A DNA stretch of 64,000 nt from Planctomycetota bacterium (GTDB lineage: Bacteria > Planctomycetota > UBA8742 > UBA2392): contig JAJVIO010000034.1 in assembly GCA_022071975.1 (NCBI GenBank), forward strand, positions 5,853 to 69,852. The letters run 5' to 3'. This document shows, one piece after another, positions 3,072 to 61,486 of the stretch (position 1 is the first letter of the stretch; every line of letters begins with the position of its first letter). The position numbers and the translations under genes are program-made. The notes beneath the pieces were generated by a model that was not told the DNA's origin, searched no databases, and saw nothing but the letters and a program-made list of their open reading frames with translations.

Positions 3072-3307
3072 GGACGCGCCGTGGGGCAGACATCCTGTCT
3101 GCCCTGTAGGGACACGCGGCAGTGTGTCCCCCGCCGTGGGGCAGGCTGCCAGCCTGCCTGTAGTTCGTGATGTGGACCATTGGCGGCAACACGTAGGGAC
3201 ACGCGGCAGCGTGTCCCAGGCCGTGGGGCAGGCTGCCAGCCTGCCTGTAGTTCGTGATGTGGACCGGTGGCGGCAACACGTAGGGACACGCTGCCGCGTG
3301 TCCCTAC
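3068..3307. repeat. REP array: GTAG + GGGACAC..GTGTCCC hairpins in an 87-bp tandem unit (starts 3106, 3193, 3280), last copy inverted
   Basis: gtagggacacgcggcag(t/c)gtgtccc occurs at 3106 and 3193. Each is followed by a second hairpin ggcaggctgccagcctgcc. The copy at 3280-3307 has the reverse-complemented loop (gctgccgc). A degenerate copy sits at 3068-3105. Confidence 0.85.
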
Positions 3308-3376
3308 TTTCGCGGCCGTCCGCGCGGGCGAAAGGGGTCTGGCTCCGCTTGCGGTGCCTGACCCCTTTCGCCCGGC

Positions 3377-4189
3377 TCACCCCTCGGCTTTCTTAGTCCG
3401 GCCTCGCGGACGAATCGTTGATTCCAGCCCCAGCTTGCGCGCGGCGTTCTTGCGCCAGGGATCGTCACTAAACGGCGAGCCCCGGTTCACGCACTCGCGC
3501 AGCTTCGCTAGCTGCTCAGCCTCTTCTTCACGGTTCACAAAACGCAACCAAGGCTGCGGCCGCGGCGTAGGCCCCTCCACCAGCCAGTGGGCGAGCGGAA
3601 AAGGGTCAGGCTCCCCGGGGTCTGGCTCCTTTTCCGGCCGGCGCAGTTTGCCGGACGGAAAAGGTGCCTGACCCCCTCCCGAGCCCGAATACAGCCAGTC
3701 CTGGGCCTTGGCGACCATGCCCGCGCGCACGGGGTTGCGCTCGACGTAGCGCAGCACTGACAAAAGGTGCCCGCCGGGCTCGATGGGGAAGCTGCGGTAG
3801 CGCCCCTGCCAGACATGCACCGAGCCCTTGTAGTGCTTGTGATAGCGCCGCACATGGCAGGTGGCAGCCCACTGCATGAAGGCCTGCAGGTCGCCGTCGC
3901 GCCGGGGCCACAGCTCCAAATGGAAGTGGTTGGTCATCAAAACCCAACCCCGCAGGTGGATATCGAACCGCTTGCAGGCCTGCCCTGAGTTTGTCGAAGA
4001 GCCAGGGAAAGGATGCGCTCAAAGGCCGCGAAGCCTGCCAGCCGGCCTGTCCACTGAAGCTTTTGCGAAGGTGGAAGCCGAGGCGAAGGCTGGGTCTTCG
4101 GGCTTGTGGAATACGTTAGCCCGGCCGTTACCCCGGTTGATAACATGGTAACAGATGCCACCGCGGGCGGAGCGAAGAGGTCGAGCCAT
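3377..4189 (-). pseudogene. REP-associated tyrosine transposase (RAYT, Y1/IS200-like), disrupted
   Basis: From ATG 4189: MARPLRSARGGICYHVINRGNGRANVFHKPED. Downstream: LMTNHFHLELWP...WQGRYRSFPIE...RYVERNPVRAGMV...LGLESTIRPRGR. There is an in-frame TGA at 4021-4019, and a homolog-like AAFERIL segment sits in another frame, so the gene has at least two frame disruptions. Confidence 0.8.
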
Positions 4190-5652: not shown

Positions 5653-5693
5653 GGCAACCTCCGGTTGCGGGCTTGGGGAGCTGCTTTGCTGCT

Positions 5694-5735
5694 TTTCCCT
5701 ATGCCCTATGCCCAATGCCCTAAGCCCTGCCCCAG
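5694..5735. repeat. heptamer array (core GCCC): tttccct atgccct atgccca atgccct aagccct gccccag
   Basis: Read directly. It is intergenic, between the stop of 5763-6311 and the start of 5281-5652. Confidence 0.8.
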
Positions 5736-5762
5736 TTTACCCCTTCGGACCGCCCCGCGCGC

Positions 5763-6446: not shown

Positions 6447-6560
6447 GTTGAAAGGCGGTTTTGTCAGGATTTACAGGATGTTAGTGGACGCGGGTTTCAT
6501 GTGGCCAGGGCCATCTGGAACCCGTGTCCTCTTGAATCCTGTCCATCCTGACCAAATGCA

Positions 6561-6633
6561 GTGGGGACACGCGGCAGCGTGTCCCTACACCAATACGGAG
6601 ATGCGGCTAGGACACGCGGCGGCGTGTCCCTAC
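6561..6633. repeat. REP pair (GT(G/A)GGGACAC...GTGTCCCTAC x2)
   Basis: gtggggacacgcggcagcgtgtccctac at 6561-6588 and taggacacgcggcggcgtgtccctac at 6608-6633. The phoH stop (complement of cta 6630-6632) lies in the second copy. Confidence 0.8.
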
Positions 6634-7667
6634 TGCTTGGCCTGGCGTTGCTTGTCTGTGGTTTCGTAGGCGTCGATGATGCGCTGCACCATGTCGTCGC
6701 GCACGATGTCCGCGTTGCCGAGGCGGCAGATGCGCACGCCTTCAACGCCGTCCAGGCGGCCGATCACGTCCACCAGGCCCGATTTCTGGCCCTCGGGCAG
6801 GTCGGTCTGGCTGATGTCGCCGGTGACCACCGCTTTGCTGCGGCGGCCCAGGCGCGTCAGGAACATCAGCATCTGCTTGGGCGTGGTGTTCTGCGCTTCG
6901 TCGAGCAAGATAAACGCGCGGTCCAGCGTACGGCCGCGCATGTAGGCCAGCGGGGCGACCTCGATGACGTCGCGTTCGATGTAACGCTGGATCTGCTGCA
7001 TGGGCAGCATAGCGCCGAGCGCGTCGAAAATCGGGCGCAGGTACGGGTTCACCTTGGCCTGGTAGTCGCCGGGCAGGAAGCCGAGCTTTTCGCCGGCCTC
7101 AACAGCCGGGCGCACCAGCACCAGCTTGCTGACGTTGCCGTGGATCAGCGCCGCCACGGCCATGCTGGTGGCCAGGAAAGTCTTGCCGGTGCCGGCGGGG
7201 CCGACGCCGAATGTTACGTTGCAGGTCTTGATCGCATCGAGGTAAGCGGCCTGGCCGGGCGTCATTGGCTTGGCGCCCTGCAGGCCGAGCGGCTTGATCT
7301 CGGCGTCGGAGTCGGCCTCCGGCGCGTCGAGGCGCAGCAGCGCGCTTTCGACGTCGTTGGTGCGCAACTGCCCGTACTTGCGGACCTTTTCGATCAGCGT
7401 CAGCAGGGCGACGTAGGCATCGAGCACGCTCTGCTCGTCGCCGGCGATGCGCAGGTTGTTGTCGCGCGCGAAGATTTTGACGTCGAAGTGGCCGCGGATC
7501 ATCTTGAGGTGACGATCGCGCTCACCGAAGAGAGCGTAAGCCTCTTCTTTATCGCGCAGTCGTATGGACTTTTCCATGAAGCCGTTCGGGGAGTGGTGGT
7601 TGGAGCCGCGACGCTCGAGTGTTTTTCCCATGAGCTTTATTCTAGCCCGTGTGGCTGTTTCCGCCAC
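6630..7667 (-). CDS. phoH: PhoH-family ATPase (YbeZ-like)
   Basis: Walker A GPAGTGKTFLA, ...ILLDEAQN, and the C-terminal GDISQTDLP motif. Confidence 0.95.
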   Translation of the reverse strand: MAETATRARIKLMGKTLERRGSNHHSPNGFMEKSIRLRDKEEAYALFGERDRHLKMIRGHFDVKIFARDNNLRIAGDEQSVLDAYVALLTLIEKVRKYGQLRTNDVESALLRLDAPEADSDAEIKPLGLQGAKPMTPGQAAYLDAIKTCNVTFGVGPAGTGKTFLATSMAVAALIHGNVSKLVLVRPAVEAGEKLGFLPGDYQAKVNPYLRPIFDALGAMLPMQQIQRYIERDVIEVAPLAYMRGRTLDRAFILLDEAQNTTPKQMLMFLTRLGRRSKAVVTGDISQTDLPEGQKSGLVDVIGRLDGVEGVRICRLGNADIVRDDMVQRIIDAYETTDKQRQAKQ

Positions 7668-8645: not shown

Positions 8646-8753
8646 TGAACGCCAAACACTAGCTACCCGTCGCGGCTCGACAAGGTACGACGAGAAAAGT
8701 TGCCACCTCGGCGCTCATCGATGATGTTACGCTCTCTCGAGGCAGGTAATCGA

Positions 8754-9137
8754 ATGGTCGAGTTCGACGAACGACAACTGCTGCACGCGCATCTGTTCTT
8801 CACTGCATTTGTGCTGGTGGCTACCAGTGTTTGGGTGGTCTCAATCCCCGACGGTGCCGGAAACTTTTATCCGATCCCCACCAGCGAAACAAAAATGTGG
8901 TTCGTACGGCGTGCGCTCGAAACGCGTTGGTTTGGGTTGGTCGTCCTGACGGCATTCGTCGCTGCGCTCGTTGGTGCGTTTCGCAAGAGGTATGCACCGA
9001 TTGTGCTTCACCGGATCTGTTGGATCGCACTGGCAGTCCAATGTGTCTGGTTTGGACTCTGCATGTTCATCCTCTGGGAGCCCATGATGGTTGTGTTTGA
9101 GCCGCTTCTAAATCCGAGTAGAACAATTCTGGATTGA
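8754..9137 (+). CDS. hypothetical membrane protein
   Basis: About four hydrophobic segments. Lower-GC patch. Start chosen at MVEFDERQ. Confidence 0.45.
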   Translation: MVEFDERQLLHAHLFFTAFVLVATSVWVVSIPDGAGNFYPIPTSETKMWFVRRALETRWFGLVVLTAFVAALVGAFRKRYAPIVLHRICWIALAVQCVWFGLCMFILWEPMMVVFEPLLNPSRTILD

Positions 9138-9148
9138 ATCGCGGAAAG

Positions 9149-10330: not shown

Positions 10331-10421
10331 TGGGATGGCTTAGCAGGGAAACGGTCGAACGGAAGGCATCGCTCACGCTCGCAGCCGGTGGGAGCTATGA
10401 TCCGTGCCCGAGGTGGAGTCG

Positions 10422-10820
10422 ATGTCGAGAATTCTGCTGCTGTTCCTGGTCTGCTTGCCTTTGCTGTGCGCCGGCTGCCCAGACGACCGGTCGCGGCCTG
10501 CGGACTCGGTGCTGGATGCGGAGATCGACGCCGTGCGAGATGAAGAAATTGAGCGCGGCCGAAAGGCATTGGCACATGTCGTGGATCGAAACAAGGACGA
10601 TTACTTCGACCCCGAGCAGGCCAAGCGCGAAATGATAGAGCACTGGGAGAACACAGACGTGAAGGCCTGGTCAGAGTTGATTGAGTCAATCCGGCCGCAG
10701 CTTCGTGACGCAGCGGCACAGGCCTGGCACCTGGCGGAGTTCGACCGGCGCAAGCACATCAAGAAACGAATCATGCAGGAACCGGGCGGCAACCTGTGGG
10801 CCGACAAGCCAACCGAGTGA
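10422..10820 (+). CDS. hypothetical lipoprotein
   Basis: MSRILLLFLVCLPLLCAGC lipobox. GAGGTGGAG SD. Confidence 0.6.
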   Translation: MSRILLLFLVCLPLLCAGCPDDRSRPADSVLDAEIDAVRDEEIERGRKALAHVVDRNKDDYFDPEQAKREMIEHWENTDVKAWSELIESIRPQLRDAAAQAWHLAEFDRRKHIKKRIMQEPGGNLWADKPTE

Positions 10821-10829
10821 CCAAACGAA

Positions 10830-10854
10830 AGCGCCACGGCTTAGCCGTGGCGCT
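10830..10854 (-). terminator. hairpin agcgccacggc-tta-gccgtggcgct, T-rich tract on the minus strand
   Basis: Lies between convergent genes. On the minus strand it is followed by tttcgtttgg. The stem is the same as at 2207-2232. Confidence 0.6.
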
Positions 10855-10868
10855 ACGGGTCGTGGGCT

Positions 10869-12563
10869 TCACTTGCGTTTGAAGGGCTTTTTCTCGTACT
10901 GCTCGCCTCGGGCATCGGCGCGTTCGGCCTTGCGGTCTTCGCGGCGTTCCCACTGGCCCTTGGTCAGCTCTTCCGTCTCTTCATCGCGGCGCGGCGGCGC
11001 GGCGTTTTCGTTTACGGGGCCGTTGTTCGGCGTACCGTTGTTGGGGCCGTTGTTGTCGCGGGCATCCGGTGCGGGTCGGGGCGGCTGTTCGGGCTCCGGC
11101 TCGACGTTGCGCACGATGTCGCGCACGCGCTGGAAGGTCTGCTGTACTTTCCAGTAGGCGCCGGCCGTGCCTTCCACGCCGGCGTCGCCGACAACTCCCG
11201 CCTTGCGGGGTTCGCGGCCGTCAGAGCCGGTGGGCAGGCAGATCAACTGGCCCGCGGCTGTGGTAAGGAAAAGCTGGTCGTCATCGGCGGCAGGCTCCGC
11301 CATAAAGCGCATGCCCTTGAAGTTGTAAGCCCAGATCAGCGCGCCGGTCTGCTCCTCAAGGGCGCAGACCAGGCCGTTGCTGCCGGCCAGCAGCACCAGG
11401 CCGCGCCACGCTACGGGGCGGGTGAACTCAACGCCGGCATCGGCAAGTTTCAACGACCAACGCGCCTTGCCCAGCAGCGGATCGACGCACGCCACGCAAC
11501 CGGCGTAGGCAAAGAAGATGTTGGTCTGCGACACACCGGGGCGCAGACCCTGGAAATCCAGCGTGCTGCGCGGGCCGGCCAGCGCGGCGGCTTTACCACT
11601 CGGCTTCACGCTGGGCTTCTCGACAAGGGCGATGCGGCGGTCCTTGGCGGCGACCAGGGTGGGCGCGTCGGGCTCGGCATCCGTGACGGTCTCGCGCTCG
11701 CTGCGGCGACGCTCTTTCGCGCTGCTTTCCTTGATGCCATCGGCGCCCTTGCCGTCCCAGGTCGTGGCAACCAGCAGGCCCCAGGGCGTGGCCACAGGGG
11801 CCGAGACCGCGCCGACGCTGGCGCTCCACTGTTTCTTGCCCTTCTTGCTTTCCAGGCGGGTGAGGTTGCCGTCGGCGCTGGTGATGAACACGTTGTCGTC
11901 CATGATCACCGGCGCGGTCAGCACGCCCTGGGCGCCGACGTCGGTGCTCCACTTCGCTGTGCCCTGCTCGGCGTCGTGCAGCGTGACTTCCCAGGTCGAT
12001 TTACTGCGGTACGAAGTCGCAACCAGCTGGTCCTTCACGTCGGGAGCGCAGTCCACCGTGGACGCCAGCCACTTGCTGTAGGTGTTAGCGCCGTCACTGA
12101 CCCGCACGCGTTCAAGGGTGCAGCTGTAGGTGGTGTAATAGGCGTGCCCCAGCGAGATCACGATGTTCGAAATGCCGGAGTCCTTGCTGCTGGTCGTCCA
12201 CTTGCGCTTGCCGGTGGCGACGTCGTAGCCATAGACGCTGGAGGCACGGCCGGAGCCAACCACCACCATGCCGTTGCTGGCGGCGGGTGTGCGCGGGTTG
12301 TCCTGGGCGACGCGCGTGACCCAGGCTTCGTCGGTGGTGTGCCCGACCATGAAATGGACGCCGTCGCCGGCCACTGCCCCATCGGCGGCGAGGTTTACGG
12401 GGATGGCCAGCGCATTGAGGTCGAGCACGCGGTCAACTTCAGGCGCGGGTTTTTCCGTCTTCGCCTCTGGCGGGTCGTCGGCGTGGATGGCGAGCGTTGA
12501 GCGGGCGGCCAGCACGCAAGCAGCGGCGGCCGCCTGGAAGGCCGTGCGATGGAGAACTTTCAT
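10869..12563 (-). CDS. PQQ-like (BamB-like) beta-propeller repeat protein, secreted, with charged C-terminal tail
   Basis: Signal peptide. Repeated motifs of the form G..YGYDVATGKRKW / GNLTRLESKKGKKQW / CALEEQTGALIW. Confidence 0.75.
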   Translation of the reverse strand: MKVLHRTAFQAAAAACVLAARSTLAIHADDPPEAKTEKPAPEVDRVLDLNALAIPVNLAADGAVAGDGVHFMVGHTTDEAWVTRVAQDNPRTPAASNGMVVVGSGRASSVYGYDVATGKRKWTTSSKDSGISNIVISLGHAYYTTYSCTLERVRVSDGANTYSKWLASTVDCAPDVKDQLVATSYRSKSTWEVTLHDAEQGTAKWSTDVGAQGVLTAPVIMDDNVFITSADGNLTRLESKKGKKQWSASVGAVSAPVATPWGLLVATTWDGKGADGIKESSAKERRRSERETVTDAEPDAPTLVAAKDRRIALVEKPSVKPSGKAAALAGPRSTLDFQGLRPGVSQTNIFFAYAGCVACVDPLLGKARWSLKLADAGVEFTRPVAWRGLVLLAGSNGLVCALEEQTGALIWAYNFKGMRFMAEPAADDDQLFLTTAAGQLICLPTGSDGREPRKAGVVGDAGVEGTAGAYWKVQQTFQRVRDIVRNVEPEPEQPPRPAPDARDNNGPNNGTPNNGPVNENAAPPRRDEETEELTKGQWERREDRKAERADARGEQYEKKPFKRK

Positions 12564-14750: not shown

Positions 14751-15827
14751 ATGAGCATTGAATGGCTGGAAGCGGAATCCGCGATTGACGAACGCGTGGC
14801 CCTGCAGGCCCAGCGCGAAAAGCTGGAGGCCGCCTACGACGCGAACCCCGGCGACGCCGAGGCCGCGCTGCGGCTGGTCAACGTGCTGGACCAGCTCGGC
14901 GTGCCCGCGCAGGAAATGGCCGCGCGCATCGAGCGCGCCTTTGAGGCCAACCCCAACGACCCGGCGCTGATGGCGTGGCTCGGCCAGCTGGCCTACCGCA
15001 TGGGCCAGCTCAAGCTCGCCATGCTGACCCTGAAACACGCGATCAGCCTGGACCCCGATGACACCCTGGCCAACTTCACACTCGGCCAGTGCATGCTGTA
15101 TGCGGGCACGTTCGAGGACGCCCTGCGCTACGCCAAGCGCGCCTGGGATACCGGCCAGGCCGCTTACTACCGCAAGGAAATCAGCCGCCTGTACTGCATC
15201 GCGCTGGTGCGCCTGCGCCGCTTCGACGAGGCCTACGAGTTCCAGAAAGAACAGCTGGCTGAACGGCCGGACGACAGCCAGACCGTGATCGACACCGCAG
15301 ACCTGCTGGGTGAAATGGGCCGCGACGACGAAGCCCGCAAGCTGCTGCTGAATGCGCACAACAAGAAACCGGCCGACACCGACCTGCTGTTCCGCCTGGC
15401 GGTCGCGCACTTCGAAAGCAACGACTTCGCCGGCGCGATCGAGTGGGCCGACAAGGTGCTGGCCGCCGACGCCCAGCACCTGGAGGGCTGGAACCTGCGC
15501 GCCCAGGCCAAGTTCAAGCTGGGGCTGTTCGAAAGTGCCTTGGCGGACCACGGCATGATCCTGGAGCTCAGCAAGAGCATGCCGCTGGACCGCAGCTTCG
15601 TGGCAAGCTGCTACGAGGGCATGGGGCGCAAGGCCGACGCCATCGCCGCGCTGAAACAAGGGCTGATCGAGGCCAAGGACTGGCCCGACCGTAAGCGCGC
15701 CTACCAGCAGCATCTGGAACGGCTGCAGATCGTCACGCCCGACCAGCAGAAGAAGAAACACAACCTTGGGCCGAACGACCCCTGCTGGTGCGGCAGCGGC
15801 AAGAAGCTGAAGAAGTGCCATGGGTAG
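14751..15827 (+). CDS. TPR-repeat protein with C-terminal SEC-C metal-binding motif
   Basis: Multiple TPR-like helices. C-terminus PNDPCWCGSGKKLKKCHG. Confidence 0.85.
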   Translation: MSIEWLEAESAIDERVALQAQREKLEAAYDANPGDAEAALRLVNVLDQLGVPAQEMAARIERAFEANPNDPALMAWLGQLAYRMGQLKLAMLTLKHAISLDPDDTLANFTLGQCMLYAGTFEDALRYAKRAWDTGQAAYYRKEISRLYCIALVRLRRFDEAYEFQKEQLAERPDDSQTVIDTADLLGEMGRDDEARKLLLNAHNKKPADTDLLFRLAVAHFESNDFAGAIEWADKVLAADAQHLEGWNLRAQAKFKLGLFESALADHGMILELSKSMPLDRSFVASCYEGMGRKADAIAALKQGLIEAKDWPDRKRAYQQHLERLQIVTPDQQKKKHNLGPNDPCWCGSGKKLKKCHG

Positions 15828-15925
15828 CTGTTGGCTGTTGGCTAACAGCTAACGGCTAACAGCCAATAGCTAACGGCCAGCGGCTGATAGCTAACAGCCA
15901 ACGGCTAACGGCCGATAGCGCCACG
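15828..15925. repeat. heptamer array, 13-14 units of C-N5-G (ctgttgg ctgttgg ctaacag ctaacgg ctaacag ccaatag ...)
   Basis: Read directly. Starts at the first base after the TAG stop. Confidence 0.85.
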
Positions 15926-16078
15926 CTGCAACCTGCCTCCGTTTCCACTCTGCGACGTTCCCGGGCGGCGTATGCCATGCCGGGGACCGATTGAGCCGTC
16001 GGGCCGGCGGCGTGGGCTGCGTGCAGTCACCACGTTCCGTGTACGGGATCTGAACCGGCGGGGAGATTGGTTTCGCAC

Positions 16079-16153
16079 CTGGTTATAGCTCAGAGGTAGA
16101 GCACCGGATTTGAGATCCGGCAGTCGCGGGTTCGACTCCCGCTAACTAGCCCA
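16079..16153 (+). tRNA. class-I tRNA with anticodon 5'-UGA-3' (Ser by anticodon, atypical architecture), CCA encoded
   Basis: Manual cloverleaf, in order. Acceptor ctggtta/taactag (one G-U pair). ta. D arm gctc-agaggta-gagc. a. Anticodon arm ccgga-tttgaga-tccgg. Variable loop cagtc (5 nt). T arm gcggg-ttcgact-cccgc. Discriminator c. Then cca. Confidence 0.8.
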
Positions 16154-16593
16154 GTGTCCCTGAACAGGACACACCAGCCTTTAACGCTGGCTTTTGGATC
16201 GGTCCCAGAAGGCCGAAACTCCTGTGCCGGAAGGGGGTGGTGAAGCGCAAGGCCCGTCCTTGACCCGTCAAGGGCAACACGGGAAGAGACTCTGCAGCAC
16301 GCAGATCCAGTCCGGGCAGAACCGGGTGAACGCGGCGCGCCAAAGCACAGGAGGAGTGCGGCGGCGCGAAGCCGAAGCCCCCAGTATCCCTCGACTCAAG
16401 CAGTGCTCCGTTTCAGACGTGCGGCCGAACGCCAAACCACCCCTGGAAAGCCCCAGCCCCGCCCGGAAGGGCGGGAGATCGACCCACCGGCAATCAGACA
16501 ATTCTCTGGTCTCCCCCGGCCTGCCGGCCGGGGCTGAAACCGGGCCCCGTTCTCTTGACGCGTCAATATTCGCCCGTTCGAAAGGGGGCAAGC

Positions 16594-17913
16594 ATGTTCA
16601 TCTTCCGCAAGTTCAAGGTTGCTCCGCATGAGCGCGCTCTCGCATTCCATGAGGGCGAGTTCCGCACGCTGCTGATGCCGGGCAAGTACAAGCTGCTTGA
16701 CCCGCTGCGCAAGCTGAAGTTCGAGAAGGTCAACCTGCGCGAGGTCTACTTCAAGCACGAGAACCTCGACGTGCTCGCCCGCGAGTTCCTGCTGCGCAAG
16801 AACCTCGACGGCGAGGTCAAGGTACTCGAGCTCGCCGACCACGAGCGCGCCTTCGTGTTCGTCGACGGCCGTTTCGACCGCATCCTCAAGCCGGGCCTGC
16901 ACGTACTGTGGGTCGCCCTGCGCAAGGTGCGCGTCGACGTCGTCGACACGCGCGAGCCGGTCTACGCCTCGGCCGACCTGCCGCGCATCGTGCGCGGCAG
17001 CACGCTGGAGAACGAGGCCAACGTGATCGACCTCAAGGACCACGAGCGCGCCCTGCTGTGGGTGGACAACCGCTTCCGCATGGCGCTGCGCCCGGGCCTC
17101 TACCTGCTGTGGAAGGGACTGCACGACGTTCGCGTCGAGGTAGTGGACGCCTCGGGCGTGCTGTTCAACCACCGCGAGCAGGCGGCCGTGCTGGGCAACG
17201 GCAACACGCAGTACGTGCTGAATCCGTTCACGGTCGAGGCCGGCCAGGTCGGCCTGTGGTTCCTGGACGGCTCGTTCATGGGCCTGCTGAAGCCGGGCAC
17301 CCACGCGTTCTGGACGGGCGTGGGCAAGCTGAAGCTGCTGCTGGTTGAGCTGCGCGAGCGCACGCTGGACATCTCGGGCCAGGAGATCATGACCAACGAC
17401 AAGGTCACGCTGCGGCTCAATGCCGTGCTGACCTACCGCGTCACGGACGCGCTCAAGTCGGTCACGGTCACCGAGGACGCGGCGCAGGCCCTGTATCGCG
17501 AGTCGCAGCTGGCACTGCGCGCGGTGGTCGGCGCCCGCGAGCTGGACGCCCTGCTGACCGACAAGGACGCCGTGGCCGCCGAGCTTGAGGCCATCGTGAA
17601 GGCCAAGGCACCGGAATTCGGCCTCGAGGTGCGTTCGCTCGGCATCCGCGACATCATCCTGCCGGGCGAGATGAAGGAGCTGATGAACAAGGTGACGGAG
17701 GCCAAGAAGGCCGCCGAGGCCGCGCTCATCAACCGCCGCGAAGAGACGGCCGCCGCGCGCATGCAGGCCAACACGGCGAAGATCCTCGAGGGCAACCCGG
17801 TACTCATGAAGCTGCGTGAGCTGGAGGTGCTTGAGAAGGTGGCCGAGAAGTCGAACCTGACGGTCGTGCTGGGAGACGGCGGCCTGAAGGATCGCGTCAC
17901 CAAGCTGCTGTAG
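16594..17913 (+). CDS. SPFH/Band-7 (slipin-like) protein with four N-terminal internal repeats
   Basis: C-terminal half LRLNAVLTYRVTD...RDIILPGEMKELMNKV...EAKKAAEA. The N-terminal half has 4 copies of a ~60-aa unit (HERA..F.DG.F...LKPG.H.LW). GGGGG SD. Confidence 0.9.
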   Translation: MFIFRKFKVAPHERALAFHEGEFRTLLMPGKYKLLDPLRKLKFEKVNLREVYFKHENLDVLAREFLLRKNLDGEVKVLELADHERAFVFVDGRFDRILKPGLHVLWVALRKVRVDVVDTREPVYASADLPRIVRGSTLENEANVIDLKDHERALLWVDNRFRMALRPGLYLLWKGLHDVRVEVVDASGVLFNHREQAAVLGNGNTQYVLNPFTVEAGQVGLWFLDGSFMGLLKPGTHAFWTGVGKLKLLLVELRERTLDISGQEIMTNDKVTLRLNAVLTYRVTDALKSVTVTEDAAQALYRESQLALRAVVGARELDALLTDKDAVAAELEAIVKAKAPEFGLEVRSLGIRDIILPGEMKELMNKVTEAKKAAEAALINRREETAAARMQANTAKILEGNPVLMKLRELEVLEKVAEKSNLTVVLGDGGLKDRVTKLL

Positions 17914-19077: not shown

Positions 19078-19099
19078 CCGCCAGCCACCGACAAATGAA

Positions 19100-20998: not shown

Positions 20999-21121
20999 TT
21001 GCGATCCTTATTGCCCCGAAAACTGGACAAAGCTTGTCCTGTTCAGTACATCCGCCCTCAGGCCGGGTGTCAAGCACGGGCACGCTTTCTGCCGGGGTGT
21101 AAACTGCGGCCGGAGACCAAC

Positions 21122-21595: not shown

Positions 21596-21597
21596 CA

Positions 21598-21828
21598 ATG
21601 CGCTGGGAAGCGGACTCATTCCTGAAGTGGACCGAGTATCCCTGGTGGCTGCGCTGGCTGATCTGCTTGATCCCCATCGGCATTGCTATCGTGCTGCTCG
21701 CCAACGGCCGCTTCATGTACTGGCTTTGGGGTATCGGCGGTGTGCTTTGCCTGATCAACCTGTACCTGACCTGGAATGAGATCCTTGACCGCTTCATGCC
21801 CCGCAAAGGACATGACGACGAGCGCTAA
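21598..21828 (+). CDS. small membrane protein (76 aa)
   Basis: ATG is 2 nt after the yjbQ-like stop. Two TM helices (WWLRWLICLIPIGIAIVLLA, WLWGIGGVLCLINLYL). Confidence 0.55.
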   Translation: MRWEADSFLKWTEYPWWLRWLICLIPIGIAIVLLANGRFMYWLWGIGGVLCLINLYLTWNEILDRFMPRKGHDDER

Positions 21829-22505
21829 GCGAGCAACTTCGGCAACTCGCGGATGTCGTTGATGCGGGCGTTGGCCTCGGCCAGTTCTTCCGTCGGTCCG
21901 TAGCCGTAGGTGCAGCCCACAAACCAAAGCCCGCAGGCCATGGCGGCTTCACCGTCGTGGATGCGGTCCCCCACCATCACGCCGGTTTTTGCCCCCACCG
22001 TGTCCAGGCCGCGCTGCAGCTCGCCGGCCTTGGTGAACTCGCGGCCACGACCGGCCGCGGCGCGGAAGTGCAGCAGTTCATCCAGCGCGAAGGTTTCGAC
22101 AACGGCGTCCATGTAGTCCTGGCTGCAGTTGCTGACCAGCAGCAGCTTGTGGCCGCTCGCGCGCAACTCGGCCAGCACCTCGCGCGCGCCCTCGAACAGC
22201 CTGCCGCTGCCGTCCTTCAGGAAAGCCTTTTCCACGGCGCTGGCGGCGCGGTGCAGGTCCATGGCCTTGTGCTTGAGCGGTTGCGGCAGCAGCTCGGCAT
22301 AGAAGATGTAGGGCGGTTTGCCGATCTGGCGGCGGATGGCGGCTTCGTCCGGCGGCGCATCCAGCCCCGGCAGGTCGCCGGCCGCCATCAGTGTTTCGAA
22401 CGCCAGGTGAATCGCGCGCGCGCCGAAGTCGCCGCTGTTCAACAGCGTGCCGTCCATGTCGAACGCCACGCAGTCCAGGTGTGTGCCGGTCCAGGGATAA
22501 GCCAT
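21825..22505 (-). CDS. HAD-superfamily hydrolase (phosphoglycolate phosphatase-like)
   Basis: Preferred start MAYPWTG. CVAFDMDGTLLNS is the DxD motif. ...LVSNCS... and VGDRIHDGEAA. Confidence 0.85.
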   Translation of the reverse strand: MAYPWTGTHLDCVAFDMDGTLLNSGDFGARAIHLAFETLMAAGDLPGLDAPPDEAAIRRQIGKPPYIFYAELLPQPLKHKAMDLHRAASAVEKAFLKDGSGRLFEGAREVLAELRASGHKLLLVSNCSQDYMDAVVETFALDELLHFRAAAGRGREFTKAGELQRGLDTVGAKTGVMVGDRIHDGEAAMACGLWFVGCTYGYGPTEELAEANARINDIRELPKLLA

Positions 22506-39111: not shown

Positions 39112-39199
39112 GCCCTCGGCAGGTGTCGGTTTTCAGGGGCAGGTGTCAGGTTCTGAAGCCGACACACGCGTGCAGCAGAGGCCGGTCGGCGCGGGATGC

Positions 39200-39241
39200 C
39201 CTGTAAACTGAAACCTGTAACCTGTAACCTGAAACCTGTAG
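39200..39241. repeat. heptamer array (core CCTG): cctgtaa actgaaa cctgtaa cctgtaa cctgaaa cctgtag
   Basis: Read directly. Ends 6 nt before the yvcK ATG. Confidence 0.85.
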
Positions 39242-39247
39242 TCCAGC

Positions 39248-40246
39248 ATGGCGCTGTTTCCGCGACTCTTCCGGCGTTCGCCCACTGTTGTTGCCATCGG
39301 CGGCGGCACCGGGGCCAGCGGCCTGCTGCGCGGGCTCAAGGAACACACCGATAAACTCACGGCTGTGGTCACCGTCGCCGACGACGGCGGCAGCAGCGGC
39401 CGTTTCCGCAAGGAGTTCGGCATGCTGCCCCCGGGCGACATCCGCAACTGCCTGGCGGCGCTGTCGGACGCGGGGCCTGTGCTTGAGAAGCTGTTCCAGC
39501 ACCGTTTTGAAGAAGGCGACCTGAAGGGTCACCCCTTCGGCAACATCTTTCTCGCGGCCATGACCCAGGTAACCGGCGACTTCGAGCAGGCCGTGCGCGA
39601 GGCCAACCGCGTGCTGAACGTGCGCGGGCGCGTGCTGCCGGCCACGGCCACCAAGATCAGCCTGATCGCCGAGCACGAGGACGGCAGCAAGACCACCGGC
39701 GAGTCCCTGGTGGGCAAGGTGAACAAGCCGGTCAAGCGCCTGAGCATCAAGCCCGAGGACGCGCCGGCCGGCACCGACGTGGTGGACGCCATCATGCAGG
39801 CTGACCTGGTGCTGCTGGGCCCGGGCAGCGTTTACACCAGCGTGCTGCCCAACCTGCTGATCCGCGGCATTCAGGAAGCGCTGCTGAAAACACCCGCCGT
39901 GGTGGGCTACGTCTGCAACATCATGACCCAGCCCGGCGAAACCCAGGACTTCAAGGCCAGCCGCCACGTGGAGGTGCTGATCGAGCACACCAGCCCGTCG
40001 CTGATCGACTTCGTGGTGGTAAACACCGGCAAAATACCGGAGGCGCTGGCGCAGGCCTACGCCGCCGAGCACGCGGTGCCCGTCGCCGCCGACCTGGAGC
40101 GCCTGACCACACTGCCCGGCGGTCCGCGCATCATCACGGCCGACCTGGTCAAGGCCGACCACGTAGTGCGCCACAACCCGGCGAAGCTTGCCGAGTTGTG
40201 CTTGAGCGTGTATCGCGAAATCAACAAAGAGCGCGCGCGCGCATAG
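39248..40246 (+). CDS. yvcK: YvcK/CofD-like gluconeogenesis factor family protein
   Basis: VVAIGGGTGASGLLRGLK, VTVADDGGSSG, PPGDIRNC and GPGSVYTSVLPNLL. Confidence 0.9.
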   Translation: MALFPRLFRRSPTVVAIGGGTGASGLLRGLKEHTDKLTAVVTVADDGGSSGRFRKEFGMLPPGDIRNCLAALSDAGPVLEKLFQHRFEEGDLKGHPFGNIFLAAMTQVTGDFEQAVREANRVLNVRGRVLPATATKISLIAEHEDGSKTTGESLVGKVNKPVKRLSIKPEDAPAGTDVVDAIMQADLVLLGPGSVYTSVLPNLLIRGIQEALLKTPAVVGYVCNIMTQPGETQDFKASRHVEVLIEHTSPSLIDFVVVNTGKIPEALAQAYAAEHAVPVAADLERLTTLPGGPRIITADLVKADHVVRHNPAKLAELCLSVYREINKERARA

Positions 40247-40253
40247 CTAAGGC

Positions 40254-43200
40254 CTACTGCAGCGCCTTGTACAGCAGCCGCAGCGGATGCACCACCTGCA
40301 CGCCGTCATTTACCTGCCCTGAGCCTGTCGAAGGGCCATCTTCGCTGGTCTTTACTCCCTGCCGGATCTGCGTCTGGCAGATGCCGCAGCTTGAGGTCAC
40401 GACGTCCGGCTTCGCCAGGTTGATCTTCGTGAACAGCGGCTGGCCGATCTTGATGCTCATGTCGAAGTTGTCGGTCTTCAAGCCGAAGGTGCCCGACAGG
40501 CCGCAACAACCCGCGTTCAAATCCACGGTCGTGCCCTCATCCAGCAGGTCGATCAGCGCCTTGGCCGCGTCGCCGATCTTCAGCACCTTGCTGTGGCACG
40601 GCAGGTGCCAGGCCACCCGCTTGCCCAGCGGCTTGAGCTGCTTGCGCATCTCGGGCTGCTTGAACACCTCCAGCAGCATGGCGTGGGCATCCAGGCAGGC
40701 ATCCGCGACCTCATGGGTGTAGCCGGTGTCGTGGATGCGCGTCCATTCGCGCGCGGCCGCGAGCATGCAGCTCGGCGCGCTGAACACGATTTTCGCGCCG
40801 CGCCGCACGGGTTTGAGCAGCTTGTCGACGTTCTCCTGGATGTCGGCCCTGGCGCCGCGGTTGTCGCCCTGGGTGATCTTGCTGATGCCGCAGCAGTTCA
40901 GCGCGGGCGTGTGCACCGTGATGCCGAGCGCGGTCAGGATTTCCACCAGCGTGGCCTTCTCGCCGTCGGGGTCGTAGTACTCGGCGTAGCAGCCTGGAAA
41001 CACCACGACTTCGGTGGGCAGCTTGGCGCGCACCTCGGCCGGCACTTCCAGCGGCTTGAGGCGCTTCACCCCGTGGGGCTTGTGGTACTCGGGCAGCTTG
41101 CGGCGCTCATCAAGGCCCGTCACGCTCTGGGCCATGCCGCGCAGGAAGCGGTTGCGCAGGATTGTGTTGGCCATGCCCGCCACCTTCTGGCCGGCCTTGC
41201 CCATCTTGTCGGGTTTGCTGAGCAGATCGGCCACCATGCCGCCCTTGCCCTTGCGGTCGATGAACTGCTCGCGGAACACCATGCTGATGCCGGGGATGTC
41301 GACCTGGGTGGGGCACTCCACCAGGCACTGCTCGCAGGCGATGCACAGGTCGATGTTGGCCTTGAACTCGGCGTCCAGCAGCAGGTTGACGTCCAGGCGC
41401 CCGGCCACCACGCCGCGCAGCAGGTTGGCCTTGGCGCGCGCGCTGTATTTTTCTTCCTTGCCGACGCGCATAAGCGGGCAGTAGTTGCGGCACTTGCCGC
41501 AGCCGTGGCACTTCTCGATTTCCTCAAGCACCGAGGGCCGGTCCAGCACCGTGCCGGTGGGCTGACGCGCGTAGTCTTCGCCCACACGCAGGAACGATGT
41601 GATGCTTCGGAGCGCAGGCGTCCCGCCCCCGGCATGCTCTGGCACCGGCCGGAGGCCCGTGCCAGTAGCAGGCGGGACGCCTGCGCTCCCAACCTTGTTC
41701 AGCGGATTCAGCAGGAAGCGCGGATCAAACAGCGCCTTCACCTGCTCGAACAGCGGGTACACCTCGCCGTACATGCGCTTCAGGTACGGCGTGCGCATCA
41801 GGCCGTCGCCGTGCTCGCCGCTGATGGTGCCCTTCAGGCCTTTCACCAGCTCGAACACCTCGTCGGCCGCTTTCCGCATGCGTTCGCGGTCGGCGGGGTC
41901 TTTGCAGTTGGCGAAAGGGTTGACGTGCAGGTTGCCCTCGCCGCCGTGTCCGAACAGGTGGGCCGTGAAGCCGTTGGCTTCACAAATGCGTTTGAAGCCT
42001 TCGATGAACTGCGGCAGCTTCCAGGGCGGCACGGCGCAGTCCTCGATCCAGCGGGTGGGCTTGTGGTCGCCCTTCACGCGGCTCAGGATCGGGCTGGCCA
42101 CCTTGCGCACCGTCCATGCTTTCTCCAGTTCGGCGGCGTCGTAGGCGGCTTTGCCGTCGAAGGCCGGGCCCTGTTTCACGCACAGATCCAGCGCGGCGTC
42201 CACGGATTTCGCCGTGTCGCGCTCGTCGTCGGCCCAGTATTCCACAATCAGCATGGACTGCAGACGCTCTGGAATGCCCTCGGCCAGGCGCGGGTCGCTG
42301 CGCGCCGCCACGTCGATGAAGCTGCGGTCCAGCACCTCCAGCTTGGTCGGCCGTGTGTTCAGCAGTTTCACCACGCCCTCGGCCATGGCCTGGTTGCTGT
42401 CGAAGTACAGCGTCAGGCCGGCCTGTTTGCGCGGGAGTTTCAGCACGCGCAGCTTTGCTTCAAGCAGGATGCCGAGCGTTCCCTCGCTGCCGCTGAACAG
42501 CCGGGGCAGATCGAGAATGCCGCCTTCGGCGTCGAACTCCGTGCGCGGGTAGTAGGCCTGGATGTCGACGCCCGAGTTGTCGGAATGCAGCAGCTCGAAC
42601 AGGTTGTAGCCGCTGCTGCTGCGGGTGGCTTCCGGCCGTTGCTCTTTCAACAGCTTCGCGTTGTCGCGCGCCAGCTTGAACAGCGCCTCGGCAATCCGCT
42701 GTTCCGCGGCTGTGGCGTCGGCGGGAAACTCGACTGCGCCGTTCGCGACCTTCAGCGGCCGTAACTTGGCGCGTTCGCCGTCGGGCAGCAGCACGTCCAG
42801 CTCAAGCAGGTAGTCCTTGGCGGTGCCCCAGCGGATCGACTTGGCGCCGCCGCTGTTGTTGCTGACCATGGCGCCGACGGTGCACCAGGGGCTGCTGCTG
42901 GGGTCGGGCGGCCAGAACATCCCGAAGCTGCCCAGCTCGGCGTCGAAGTCGTCTTTCACTACGCCCGGCTGCACACGCGCCCAGCCGTGGCTGGGCTGCA
43001 CTTCGATGATGCGATTCATGTGCACCGAGAAATCCAGGATGATGCCCTGGCCCAGGGATTGGCCCGCAACGCCCGAGCCCGCGCCGCGGCATGTGATCGG
43101 CACACCGTGCTCGCGCGCGAACTGCATGGCCTTGGCCACGTCGTCGGCGTCCATGGGCTCGACCACGCAGCTGGGCCACAGTTCAACGATGCTGGCGCTG

Positions 43201-43346
43201 CTGGCGTACAGGGCGCGGCTGATGTCGTCCCAGCGTACCGCGCCGCGGACGTTGCGGCGCAGGCGCGAGTAATCAACCGGGTACAGCGGCTTTGAATACG
43301 CTCGGGCGTCGGCCTGTGCGGTGCTCATGGCACGGCACTCTAGCAT
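40254..43346 (-). CDS. FAD-binding oxidase (GlcD-like) fused to 4Fe-4S and CCG (GlcF/HdrD-like) domains, YdiJ-like
   Basis: N-terminal FAD_binding_4 (RGAGSGVAGQS). Ferredoxin motifs CHGCGKCRNYCP and CIACEQCLVECP. The C-terminal half is Cys-rich (PCH, CCG). Confidence 0.9.
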   Translation of the reverse strand: MLECRAMSTAQADARAYSKPLYPVDYSRLRRNVRGAVRWDDISRALYASSASIVELWPSCVVEPMDADDVAKAMQFAREHGVPITCRGAGSGVAGQSLGQGIILDFSVHMNRIIEVQPSHGWARVQPGVVKDDFDAELGSFGMFWPPDPSSSPWCTVGAMVSNNSGGAKSIRWGTAKDYLLELDVLLPDGERAKLRPLKVANGAVEFPADATAAEQRIAEALFKLARDNAKLLKEQRPEATRSSSGYNLFELLHSDNSGVDIQAYYPRTEFDAEGGILDLPRLFSGSEGTLGILLEAKLRVLKLPRKQAGLTLYFDSNQAMAEGVVKLLNTRPTKLEVLDRSFIDVAARSDPRLAEGIPERLQSMLIVEYWADDERDTAKSVDAALDLCVKQGPAFDGKAAYDAAELEKAWTVRKVASPILSRVKGDHKPTRWIEDCAVPPWKLPQFIEGFKRICEANGFTAHLFGHGGEGNLHVNPFANCKDPADRERMRKAADEVFELVKGLKGTISGEHGDGLMRTPYLKRMYGEVYPLFEQVKALFDPRFLLNPLNKVGSAGVPPATGTGLRPVPEHAGGGTPALRSITSFLRVGEDYARQPTGTVLDRPSVLEEIEKCHGCGKCRNYCPLMRVGKEEKYSARAKANLLRGVVAGRLDVNLLLDAEFKANIDLCIACEQCLVECPTQVDIPGISMVFREQFIDRKGKGGMVADLLSKPDKMGKAGQKVAGMANTILRNRFLRGMAQSVTGLDERRKLPEYHKPHGVKRLKPLEVPAEVRAKLPTEVVVFPGCYAEYYDPDGEKATLVEILTALGITVHTPALNCCGISKITQGDNRGARADIQENVDKLLKPVRRGAKIVFSAPSCMLAAAREWTRIHDTGYTHEVADACLDAHAMLLEVFKQPEMRKQLKPLGKRVAWHLPCHSKVLKIGDAAKALIDLLDEGTTVDLNAGCCGLSGTFGLKTDNFDMSIKIGQPLFTKINLAKPDVVTSSCGICQTQIRQGVKTSEDGPSTGSGQVNDGVQVVHPLRLLYKALQ
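41609..41689. repeat. 81-bp nested perfect palindrome embedded in frame in the oxidase ORF
   Basis: Outer arms ggagcgcaggcgtcccgcc (41609-41627) and ggcgggacgcctgcgctcc (41671-41689). Inner arms ctggcac (41639-45) and gtgccag (41659-65). It encodes GSAGVPPATGTGLRPVPEHAGGGTPAL. Confidence 0.9.
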
Positions 43347-50154: not shown

Positions 50155-50355
50155 ATGAAGATCACCGTGAACGGCACCGAGCGCGAAGTGGCGGAAGGCA
50201 CCACGATCGCTCAGTTGATCGAGCAGTTGAAGCTGCGCACGGACCGCATCGCCACGGAGCGCAACCTTGATGTGGTGCCCAAGGCCAAGTACGCGGAAAC
50301 GCGCCTGGCGGATGGGGACAAGCTGGAGATCGTTACCTTTGTAGGCGGCGGATAG
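50155..50355 (+). CDS. thiS: sulfur carrier protein ThiS
   Basis: [12 protein letters not shown]...[13 protein letters not shown] with the C-terminal GG. 66 aa. Confidence 0.9.
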
Positions 50356-50360
50356 GCGGA

Positions 50361-50465
50361 CAACAGCAAATGAACAATAACCAATTACCAATTTTCAATG
50401 AGCTGCCCCGGTCGCGGGCGCCAATTGGAAATTGGTTATTGGTTATTGGTAATTCGCTGTTCGAA
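50361..50465. repeat. heptamer arrays in dyad symmetry (CAATNNN x4-6 ... ATTGGNN x4) around a GC core
   Basis: Left arm: caacagc aaatgaa caataac caattac caatttt caatgag. Core: ctgccccggtcgcgggcgcc. Right arm: attggaa attggtt attggtt attggta attcgct gttcgaa. Confidence 0.85.
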
Positions 50466-50482
50466 CTGGATTGGAATCGCGA

Positions 50483-51316
50483 ATGACCGTGACGGCATCC
50501 GAACTCGATACTCCGCTGATCGTCGGCGACTACACGTTCTCCTCGCGCCTGCTGGTCGGCACCGGCAAGTACGCCTCCTTCCAGCTCATGCGCGACTGCC
50601 TGGCCGCCAGCGGCACCGAGTGCGTCACCGTGGCCGTGCGTCGCGTGAAGCTGGACGGCCCCAAAGAAGAGAACCTGCTCAGCTACATCGACGAATCGAA
50701 GTACAAAATCCTGCCCAACACGGCCGGCTGCTTCACGGCCGAGGATGCGATCCGCACCGCGCACCTTTCGCGCGAGGCGCTGAACACCCCGCTTGTGAAG
50801 CTGGAGGTGCTGGCGGACCCCAAGACCCTGCTGCCCGAGCCGGTCGGCACGCTGGAGGCCTGCGCGCGTCTGGTGAAAGAAGGCTTTACCGTGCTGGTCT
50901 ACACCAGCGACGACCCGGTGATGGCGCGTAGACTGGCGGACCTGGGCGTGGCCAGCGTGATGCCCGCGGGCTCGCCCATCGGCAGCGGGCAGGGCGTGTT
51001 GAACCCGAACAACATCCGCATCATCCTCGAGACCGTGCGCGAGCAGTACAAGCTGCCGATCATCGTGGACGCGGGCGTGGGCACGGCCAGCGACGTCACC
51101 ATCGCCATGGAACTGGGCGCCGACGGCGTGCTGCTGAACACCGGCATCGCCCATGCGCAGGACCCGCTGCGCATGGCGGTCGCCATGAAAGCCGGCATTG
51201 AGGCCGGGCGCCTGGCCTACCTGGCCGGCCGCATCCCGCGCAAGCTGTACGCCAACGCAAGCAGCCCCATGGAAGGCCGCATTGCCAGCGTCAAGGAAGG
51301 GATTCCCGGCGAGTAG
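50483..51316 (+). CDS. thiG: thiazole synthase ThiG
   Basis: [27 protein letters not shown] and VDAG.G. An alternative TTG start at 50471 is possible. Confidence 0.95.
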
Positions 51317-61400: not shown

Positions 61401-61486
61401 GAGAGGTCAGAGGTTAGAGGCCGGAAGTCAGGGACGCCATAGCCGAAAGCACCCTGACCTCTGATCCCTGATAGCTGACCTCTGAA
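61401..61486. repeat. entire 86-nt spacer = 12 heptamers in dyad symmetry (NAGAGGN ... ACCTCTG)
   Basis: gagaggt cagaggt tagaggc cggaagt cagggac gccatag ccgaaag caccctg acctctg atccctg atagctg acctctg. Confidence 0.85.

Follow-up and report, generated by a model that had tools for sequence, protein, structure and literature searches.

Intergenic heptanucleotide arrays, mostly in palindromic form, in an uncultured Planctomycetota lineage

Five intergenic arrays of tandem 7-nt units (loci A to E) are described here from a 64,000-nt stretch of contig JAJVIO010000034.1 (the window), which comes from an uncultured Planctomycetota lineage with a G+C content of 63%. That heptanucleotide repeats are in excess between the genes of bacteria was recognised in 2007 (in cyanobacteria in 1990), without an accepted mechanism or function. 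Long simple sequence repeats (LSSR; by definition, runs that exceed chance expectation in length) with heptanucleotide units are over-represented in prokaryotes according to the study of Mrazek, Guo and Shah (2007) as it is related in two later papers (PMC4679880, PMC4692102); as cited there, polymerase slippage was proposed as their source, and the excess of heptamers was tied, as a hypothesis, to the 7-nt footprint of the polymerase. A further LSSR reference is Huang and Mrazek (2014; PMC4060949). The STRR heptamers of filamentous cyanobacteria (Calothrix/Nostoc), known here through their citation in PMC4692102, have been used for fingerprinting (PMC5088731). GGGAATC repeats of Xanthomonas form inverted pairs with much variation in length and sequence between close species (Rehm et al., 2015; PMC4692102), and TAACTGA repeats of marine Beggiatoaceae, cyanobacteria and Bacteroidetes form arrays that abut start codons (MacGregor, 2015; PMC4679880), with 169 direct sets as against one inverted (PMC4679880). 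Palindromes are known from the REP/BIME/REPIN elements, dispersed families of conserved sequence mobilised by RAYT transposases (PMC3116915), and from template switching during replication, which creates and maintains hairpins (Monttinen and Loytynoja, 2022; PMC8794818) and homogenises the arms of inverted repeats (PMC8604942).

The five loci have the defining features of LSSR and STRR arrays, namely a 7-nt unit, tandem arrangement, intergenic position, excess over other periods and strain variation. Since this class of heptanucleotide repeat is already described, they are not a new class of element; a preliminary description of this DNA, made from its letters alone, had known of no named class with such properties, and in this it was mistaken, intergenic heptanucleotide repeats having been named as LSSR, STRR, TAACTGA and GGGAATC repeats. 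The account that we consider rather probable, if well short of certain, is that the five loci are locally generated arrays of LSSR/STRR type that were grown by slippage, mirrored by template switching and are mostly non-functional.

Period-7 arrays in the window

Period 7 was scored by counting matches at lag 7 over sliding windows of 35 comparisons, with 100 Markov-1 shuffles as control, and the scans were confined to the 64-kb window and the loci fetched for comparison. The lag-7 regions found in the window, 5679–5742, 15812–15930, 39186–39256, 50356–50473 and 61437–61478 (scores 21–28/35), are exactly the five intergenic loci named in the preliminary description, which had listed the array at 15828–15925 and four other spacers with the same period. 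At the same thresholds lags 4, 5, 8, 10, 11 and 13 return no region in the window. The maxima of the shuffles have a mean of 20.9 and never exceed 23/35, as against 27–28 observed, and comparison with shuffled sequence, which had been proposed as a check, thus favours a true period of 7 in the window and the fetched loci. TRF likewise reports period 7 at locus B and at 5697–5728, 39200–39240, 50375–50393/50423–50454 and 61402–61431.

By TRF and autocorrelation together, all five loci consist of head-to-tail 7-nt units, 4–14 per locus. The units match one another at 69–88% (TRF) and perfect runs extend over at most 2–3 units; the periodic signal is nonetheless significant. All five arrays are intergenic, the flanking genes being backed by third-position G+C (GC3). 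Since A, B, C, D and E all recur in independent assemblies, with the array either unchanged or in variant form, the arrays are not assembly artefacts. The unit consensuses are CCCTATG, CTAACGG, CCTGTAA, CAATTAC and AGAGGTC; when two-unit consensuses were searched with up to 3 mismatches, matches were essentially confined to the locus from which each was taken. Each array has an invariant core of 2–5 nt, and the other unit positions vary.

The arrays are mostly palindromes, in which two heptamer arms stand in inverted orientation, and no fewer than four of the five loci consist of such inverted pairs. Locus B (15825–15925, + strand), the type example, parses into 14 heptamers from 15828, all of the form C-N5-G with consensus CTAACGG, and its first unit begins at the base after TAG 15825–15827, as had been described. 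TRF gives it period 7 with 10.4 copies and 69% matches, and sub-periods of 14 and 21. Its palindrome (15825–15907) takes in the TAG stop of the TPR/SEC-C gene together with the complement CTA and forms an 83-nt hairpin (–57.1 kcal/mol, z –6.2); the fold-back previously proposed for this array is therefore borne out, though it had been stated for B alone and in fact extends to most of the loci. GC stands at all 13 unit junctions of B, as against 22 deviations elsewhere in the units, and the GC junctions are retained in L090, a genome fragment 91% identical to the window that was recovered by a metagenome scan. The spacer of 251 nt that holds locus B leads to a tRNA-Ser gene (16079–16153), 150 nt downstream of the array. 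A super-period of 21 nt (two helical turns), hinted at by TRF at B and C, was rejected, as a single substitution in L001/L002 breaks that of C.

Locus D (50362–50461, + strand) is a 100-nt palindrome between thiS and thiG whose arms, 50362–50410 and 50413–50461, are 49 nt each, 80% complementary and separated by 2 nt; each arm contains about four heptamers (NNCCAAT / ATTGGNN), and the central loop holds GAGCTGC. As RNA it folds at –53.2 kcal/mol (z –5.6). It appears to have been inserted between the stop codon and an ancestral short spacer, AACTGGA.... Locus E (61402–61483, – strand) is a palindrome of AGAGGTC / GACCTCT units (arms 61402–61433 and 61452–61483; –41.7 kcal/mol, z –4.0) that fills the 86-nt spacer from the stop of a Ser/Thr kinase gene to the start of tmk, both on the – strand. 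At locus C (+ strand) the left arm, 39112–39147, adjoins the stop codon of hpf and is made up of degenerate CAGGTGT/CGGTTTT/CAGGGG units, and the right arm, 39197–39241, has six CCTGTAA/CCTGAAA units that end 6 nt before the start of yvcK (CofD); 17 of 28 positions form Watson-Crick pairs between the arms, and the fold is weak (z –1.0). Locus A (5665–5738, – strand), which lies between a peptidase C39 gene and a gene for a small secreted protein, both on the – strand, reads (CCCTATG)n on the + strand and (GGGCATA)n on the sense strand, where it has a G3N4 pattern; it has a short C-rich partner, CCCCAAGCCC, at 5665–5683 and folds no better than shuffles (z +1.1).

Opposite strands of the arrays fold almost equally, and the advantage of the sense strand (1–7 kcal/mol) is too small to be decisive for RNA function, for which reason strand asymmetry was rejected as a sign of it. 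Intrinsic terminators were rejected as well: no T-run follows the stems of B, D and E, and a terminator scan of 15000–17000 was empty at array B. Rfam, searched at the gathering threshold and at E<=1, matched none of the arrays; it returned the tRNA-Ser and a spurious microRNA match on another palindrome.

The arms of several palindromes in the window's relatives and in other loci mirror one another unit by unit. Arm complementarity is at or above the best unit-permuted score in L089 (28/28), L099 (27/28), L010 (14/14) and L022b (24/28), and the units inside one arm are just 65–86% alike in this set; since the arms mirror each other while their units differ to this degree, each palindrome arose by inverted copying of an array whose units had diverged beforehand. 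The arms of E, of L026b and of the second L090 palindrome pair no better than permuted arms, which suggests that these are older and decayed.

Two further observations concern thiS and thiG (window 50155–51316). These are separate genes in this clade, and many more distant Planctomycetota matches are one fused ThiS-ThiG protein of 312–371 aa (Pfam PF02597 + PF05690). Seven independent Logan short-read contigs (L095–L098, L101–L103) end 35–36 nt past the thiS stop, at about 50391 in the left arm of D, where either the palindrome itself or population heterogeneity at the array breaks assemblies.

Variation between strains and across lineages

Near-identical strains were gathered from public assemblies via exact protein matches. 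Three proteins of metagenome-assembled genomes labelled 'Planctomycetota bacterium' match the YvcK/CofD protein beside locus C at 87%, 84% and 79% identity, and the next match is at 55%; the ThiG matches are Planctomycetota metagenome-assembled genomes as well, and exact-protein look-ups with ThiG and with the TPR/SEC-C protein gave no record. The loci of many phyla used below are those fetched around yvcK homologs, an unplanned sample.

Between close strains the arrays change in steps of 7 nt. Nine sequences of locus A agree throughout 136 nt apart from two independent indels of 7 nt: in the window the array is longer by one GGGCATA unit, and in eight near-identical strains the partner is longer by one GCCCCAG unit. 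Array B has 7 units in L090 as against 13, a difference of exactly 42 nt (6 units), and is heavily substituted there between near-identical flanks; it still forms a hairpin (z –3.3). Unit number thus varies between related strains by one unit at A and by six at B, and this check, too, favours the preliminary description that had proposed it. Non-coding indels of 4–50 nt between the window and close strains measure 7, 7, 7, 8, 9, 14, 15 and 42 nt. A nascent two-unit duplication, AGCCGCC AGCCACC, stands directly after a stop codon at 19079–19092 (+ strand), and L090 has one 7-nt unit fewer there. Besides gene indels, the stretches of low identity between window and L090 are array B, the hairpin site 16436–16556 and 21070–21116.

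Change is also concerted. In L099, whose thiS and thiG are 94–96% identical to those of the window, the thiS-thiG palindrome retains the GAGCTGC loop motif and the opening 12 nt of its left arm, and every one of the four units in each arm has A where the window has C; the arms pair at 27 of 28 positions; L099 and the window therefore differ by concerted evolution of units and arms. Locus E in six further strains has the same unit number and 8 variable columns, and among the seven sequences (window and six strains) there are no compensatory substitutions, some of the changes breaking pairs. Taken together, the strain and species comparisons show that the arrays evolve locally and very rapidly.

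At fixed spacers a series is found that runs from empty to filled. The thiS-thiG spacer is 127 nt long in the window and in L100, with a heptad palindrome of core NNCCAAT; 105 nt in L099, with a heptad palindrome of another core; 64 nt in L106, with a small GGATTCAGG hairpin and five NNTGANN units; and has no array in L109 (42 nt), L110 (30 nt), L108 (14 nt), L104 (12 nt) and L111 (6 nt). The ThiG proteins of L104–L111 are 87–93% identical to that of the window. The hpf-yvcK spacer holds locus C in the window (136 nt); it is 82 nt long both in L010, where the AACCTGA core of the window occurs in a perfect 16-bp hairpin with three direct units, and in L011, which is without heptads, and 20 nt long in L012, without an array. 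No period-7 region was found in L104, L105, L107, L108, L109 or L112, and when filled and empty thiS-thiG sites were compared (window versus L104, L108 and L111) no flanking direct repeat or target-site duplication was present. The arrays are thus expansions of short spacers that are specific to certain lineages and of local and recent origin.

Arrays of this kind are unevenly distributed. Twelve period-7 arrays occur in 133 kb of this clade (other periods 0), 17 in 150 kb of Omnitrophota loci (other periods 0–1 each), 46 in 205 kb of cyanobacteria, Microcoleus and others (other periods 0–2 each), none in 71 kb of other Planctomycetia (other periods likewise 0) and 4 in 308 kb of Gastranaerophilales (other periods at background). 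The roughly 20 kb scanned of each of GCA_020425605.1 and GCA_016712285.1 contained no array, and arrays were present in the scanned stretches of JAANMY01, JAIOJA01 and JADZFR01. Inverted pairs with locus-specific cores occur also in Omnitrophota (L022, L026) and in L089. The longest array seen in the clade, 23 direct NNCAGGT units without an inverted partner (L110, 1696–1856), follows immediately on the TGA stop codon of a gene for a cation-transporting ATPase, and its core is that of locus C; the GGATTCA core recurs in L090 and L106. The locus-specific cores of the preliminary description (GCCC, CCTG, CAAT/ATTG and AGAGG/CCTCT) are accordingly correct within the window and are not strictly locus-specific across the clade, where NNCAGGT and GGATTCA recur.

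Among 55 distinct unit consensuses, CAG/CTG is present in 19 (10.0 expected) and ACT/AGT in 23 (13.8 expected), and ACT/AGT, CAG/CTG, TCA/TGA and GAA/TTC are enriched across phyla (uncorrected P 0.001–0.01), an enrichment of modest size that becomes borderline once the 32 tests are corrected for. The idea of one motif in every core was rejected, the two leading trinucleotide pairs being present in just 19–23 of the 55 consensuses. The composition of the units hints at a weak preference common to the phyla, the enriched letters being those of the published TAACTGA and STRR units.

Palindromes of other kinds, and palindromes at other kinds of site, accompany the arrays. At 16454–16536 (+ strand) a variable site carries a GC-rich hairpin with 25-nt arms, and L090 has in its place an unrelated GGATTCA / TGAATCC heptamer palindrome between flanks that are ~96% identical. 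Near this site, the ~265-nt non-coding stretch 16175–16440, which runs from the tRNA-Ser toward the next gene (ATG near 16593), is ~96% identical to L090, compared with 91% for the surrounding genome, and has no Rfam match at E<=1; the stretch is a candidate for a structured RNA or a leader of a kind not yet described. Within a gene, a hypervariable palindromic insert of 30 aa (41606–41692, – strand) lies in frame in a linker of a YdiJ-like FAD/Fe-S protein (open reading frame 40254–43346). The same site in L001 is occupied by a heptamer palindrome of 24 aa (CCGTGTC x3 / GGGACTC x3), the linker of L003 is longer than that of the window by 24 nt (8 codons), and that of L104 has just 9 aa. In-frame palindromic elements occur in Rickettsia genes, and the YdiJ-like insert recalls them.

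The window also contains a REP-like dispersed palindrome, GGGACACGCGGCAGCGTGTCCC / GTAGGGACACGCGGCAGCGTGTCCC, in at least five copies (about 3106–3307 and 6558–6636), which is a true repeated family, unlike the heptamer arrays; an 87-nt tandem repeat (93% matches over 2.3 copies) accounts for three of them and also holds a second palindrome, GGCAGGCTGCCAGCCTGCC. Long palindromes are not all heptad-periodic here: the 98-nt palindrome at 6459–6556, with 48-nt arms that are 77% complementary and 2 nt apart, has ATCCTGNCC-like units in its arms with a period of about 9 and not 7. Two near-perfect palindromes, 3325–3374 and 3617–3675, have GGGGTCTGGC.../...GCCTGACCCC in common; the former gave the spurious, sub-threshold Rfam match, to the viral microRNA family mir-H7 and on both strands. 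Finally, the stretches 8675–9140, 10367–10870 and 21596–21830 are absent or replaced in L090 and include a 145-aa open reading frame (8700–9137); by comparison of the two sequences, they are strain-specific gene content.

Origin of the arrays and alternative explanations

Under the account of local growth and mirroring given at the outset, a short motif beside a gene boundary would be duplicated in 7-nt steps, most likely by replication slippage or microhomology-mediated duplication, and the same process would then change the number of units in both directions. Fold-back copying, in the form of an intrastrand template switch, would invert a copy of the already diversified array, so turning the spacer into a long palindrome with heptad-periodic arms; slippage or duplication and template switching would keep homogenising units and arms while point mutation eroded them, and spacers originally of 6–20 nt would have been inflated to 86–136 nt. 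Because the flanking genes lie on the same strand, the arrays are probably co-transcribed with them, and probably fold as long hairpins; effects on mRNA stability or on translation of the neighbours would be a by-product, possible but not needed, and not the reason for the arrays. No sign of strand-specific or conserved function is seen, in that both strands fold about equally, substitutions at E break pairs and a heptamer palindrome stands even in frame within a gene. A local generating process, one of two possibilities raised in the preliminary description, is strongly upheld by the 7-nt-step indels, by changes, independent or concerted, within one and the same spacer, and by the lack of arrays in sister lineages. 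The other, selection for heptad arrays, fares poorly, as close relatives lack arrays and strain substitutions break hairpin pairs; we infer near-neutrality instead.

Several points weigh against this account. Hairpin architecture is kept at orthologous sites despite heavy sequence change (B/L090, C/L010, D/L099), and selection for structure would equally yield such retained hairpins. Arrays frequently begin right at a stop codon even where the spacer is long (251 nt at B, 470 nt in L110), unit number is unchanged at the slow loci C (3 strains) and E (7 strains), and uniform neutral decay does not predict invariant cores of 2–5 nt amid variable positions. Generic slippage leaves the preference for 7 unexplained, and the slippage model does the same for the array-free sister lineages of similar G+C. 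Since the step of 7, the invariant cores, the stop-codon starts and the differences in density are left unexplained, explanations by RNA hairpins and by a dedicated enzyme retain some weight.

Selected operon RNA hairpins, acting in 3'-exonuclease protection, in termination or attenuation, or in ribosome-dependent translation of the downstream gene, with heptads being simply how the stem grows, are an unlikely but by no means negligible alternative. All five arrays lie between same-strand genes and span the interval from stop codon almost to the next start, the z scores of B, D and E are –4 to –6, the sense strand folds slightly better at four loci (that of B with two G-U pairs), and hairpins persist at orthologous sites with altered sequence. 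Liang, Rudd and Deutscher are said to have found in 2015 that REP hairpins near stop codons affect mRNA stability and translation in E. coli. Yet relatives of 87–93% protein identity manage with spacers of 6–20 nt and no arrays, A folds no better than shuffles and C only weakly, the missing T-runs mean that the stems are not canonical terminators, the strain substitutions at E are non-compensatory, and the 23-unit array of L110 is purely direct, without a partner arm. The same-strand preference is itself not significant (5/5 versus ~70% expected, P ~0.17), and the L106 array lies in a divergent spacer; moreover, the 28/28 Watson-Crick mirroring of L089, without G-U pairs, argues for DNA copying rather than RNA-level selection. 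The invariant short core every 7 nt in each array, and the position of arrays next to start and stop codons, would also suit a binding platform for an oligomeric protein that binds RNA or DNA and recognises a single unit every 7 nt in transcriptional or post-transcriptional control, and cold-shock, S1 or CsrA-type binders have been proposed for TAACTGA repeats (MacGregor, PMC4679880; bioRxiv 10.1101/2022.06.06.494920). Here such a platform is very unlikely: the cores are wholly different between loci (GCCC, RGCY, CTG, AATTG, AGAGG), for which reason a common binding protein is improbable, the orthologous genes of sister lineages are without arrays, and the core at one site is altered within relatives that are 94% identical.

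A dedicated, lineage-restricted enzyme, either a nuclease, transposase or recombinase that makes a 7-nt stagger followed by fill-in or a snap-back polymerase or primase that proceeds in 7-nt steps, is distinctly unlikely, although several observations favour it: the preference for 7 above all other non-codon periods is sharp and recurs in several unrelated phyla, array density is strongly unequal between sister lineages, new 7-nt duplications arise at sites with just 4-nt microhomology, and the same site holds different palindromes in different strains. The enrichment of CAG/CTG (19 versus 10.0) and ACT/AGT (23 versus 13.8) in the 55 consensuses would fit as well, were it not borderline after the 32-test correction; no candidate enzyme emerged, no search aimed at one having been made, the arrays furthermore lack element termini, and ordinary slippage in an existing array already predicts indels in multiples of the unit. 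The broader proposition, unlikely in our estimation, is that a lineage-restricted activity distinct from generic slippage writes 7-nt duplications and inverted copies at gene boundaries. If it were true, the heptad palindromes of this clade, of Omnitrophota, of some Bacillota and of cyanobacteria with their non-photosynthetic relatives would all go back to that one activity, and such palindromes would betray a DNA-transaction enzyme or repair pathway that has yet to be described. The least probable reading, with hardly any chance of being right, takes the loci for insertions of miniature mobile elements (MITE, REP or REPIN type) that bear terminal inverted repeats. Palindromic architecture, intergenic position, polymorphism for presence, absence and replacement at fixed sites and the genuine REP-like palindrome GGGACACGCGGCAGCGTGTCCC elsewhere in the window could be cited for them; however, the five loci have no sequence in common, no target-site duplication distinguishes filled from empty thiS-thiG sites, growth is by internal 7-nt units and not by gain of whole elements, and no Rfam family matches. 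The earlier view that no single mobile sequence was copied into these loci is thereby supported, and neither MITE or REP termini nor an Rfam match was found in the arrays.

This lineage offers material that is useful for a question of long standing. A fixed-site series that leads from empty 6–14-nt spacers through nascent duplications of two units and direct arrays (up to 23 units) to mirrored palindromes, together with 7-nt-step changes between near-identical strains, makes the questions of why 7 and of how palindromes arise testable. In practical terms, the palindromes appear to break short-read assemblies, and they can inflate or split operons and even insert in frame in proteins.

Comparison with known repeat classes

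A full-text literature search found no report of heptamer repeats in Planctomycetota/Planctomycetes. The closest likeness is to LSSR, which are also tandem 7-nt units in intergenic DNA with an excess of period 7, a patchy phylogeny, slippage as the proposed origin and no known function; the difference is that LSSR are near-perfect runs, whereas the window arrays are short (4–14 units), degenerate (69–88%) and mostly inverted palindromic pairs. STRR resemble them in having several heptamer cores per genome, intergenic position and a copy number that varies between strains, and the Microcoleus loci of the present sample have the same period-7 signal, including inverted arrays that flank short segments. 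The STRR consensuses are CCCCAGT, TTGGTCA and CAACAGT; STRR1–3 in this form are absent from the window units, where only partial resemblance is found, such as CCAACAG in array B. The cyanobacterial arrays also differ in being much longer and more uniform, and the genome here has a G+C content of 63%.

Likeness to repeats with a single core is more limited. The G-quadruplex-type repeats GGGAATC / GGGGAYT of Xanthomonas and Nostoc find a possible parallel in locus A, whose (GGGCATA)n also reads as G3N4, but the Xanthomonas repeats have one dominant core genome-wide as against nearly one core per locus here. TAACTGA arrays abut start codons, as arrays do here, and ACT/AGT, TCA/TGA and CAG/CTG are enriched in the units of the present arrays; they differ in consisting of a single conserved heptamer that is nearly always direct, in contrast to the diverse and mainly inverted cores of this clade. 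REP/BIME/REPIN elements are likewise imperfect intergenic palindromes in operons near stop codons, and the window arrays depart from them in lacking a common sequence and in growing by internal 7-nt units. Phase-variation (contingency) simple sequence repeats were rejected as a model, the arrays being degenerate, situated between housekeeping genes (thiS/thiG, tmk, hpf/yvcK) and stable in unit number at C and E. Hairpins made by template switching offer the nearest match to the palindromic form, with arms mirrored down to unit variants, parallel change of both arms and arm homogenisation, although template switching is a mechanism and not an element class, and heptad periodicity is absent from those reports.

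A long-known and unexplained heptanucleotide excess is hereby extended to a new phylum, with neither a function nor a new mechanism demonstrated. Set against the repeats described before, what is new is the phylum itself, the dominance of the palindromic form, the many cores within one genome, combined with high degeneracy, and the series that leads from an empty spacer to a mirrored palindrome and shows polymorphism in 7-nt steps.

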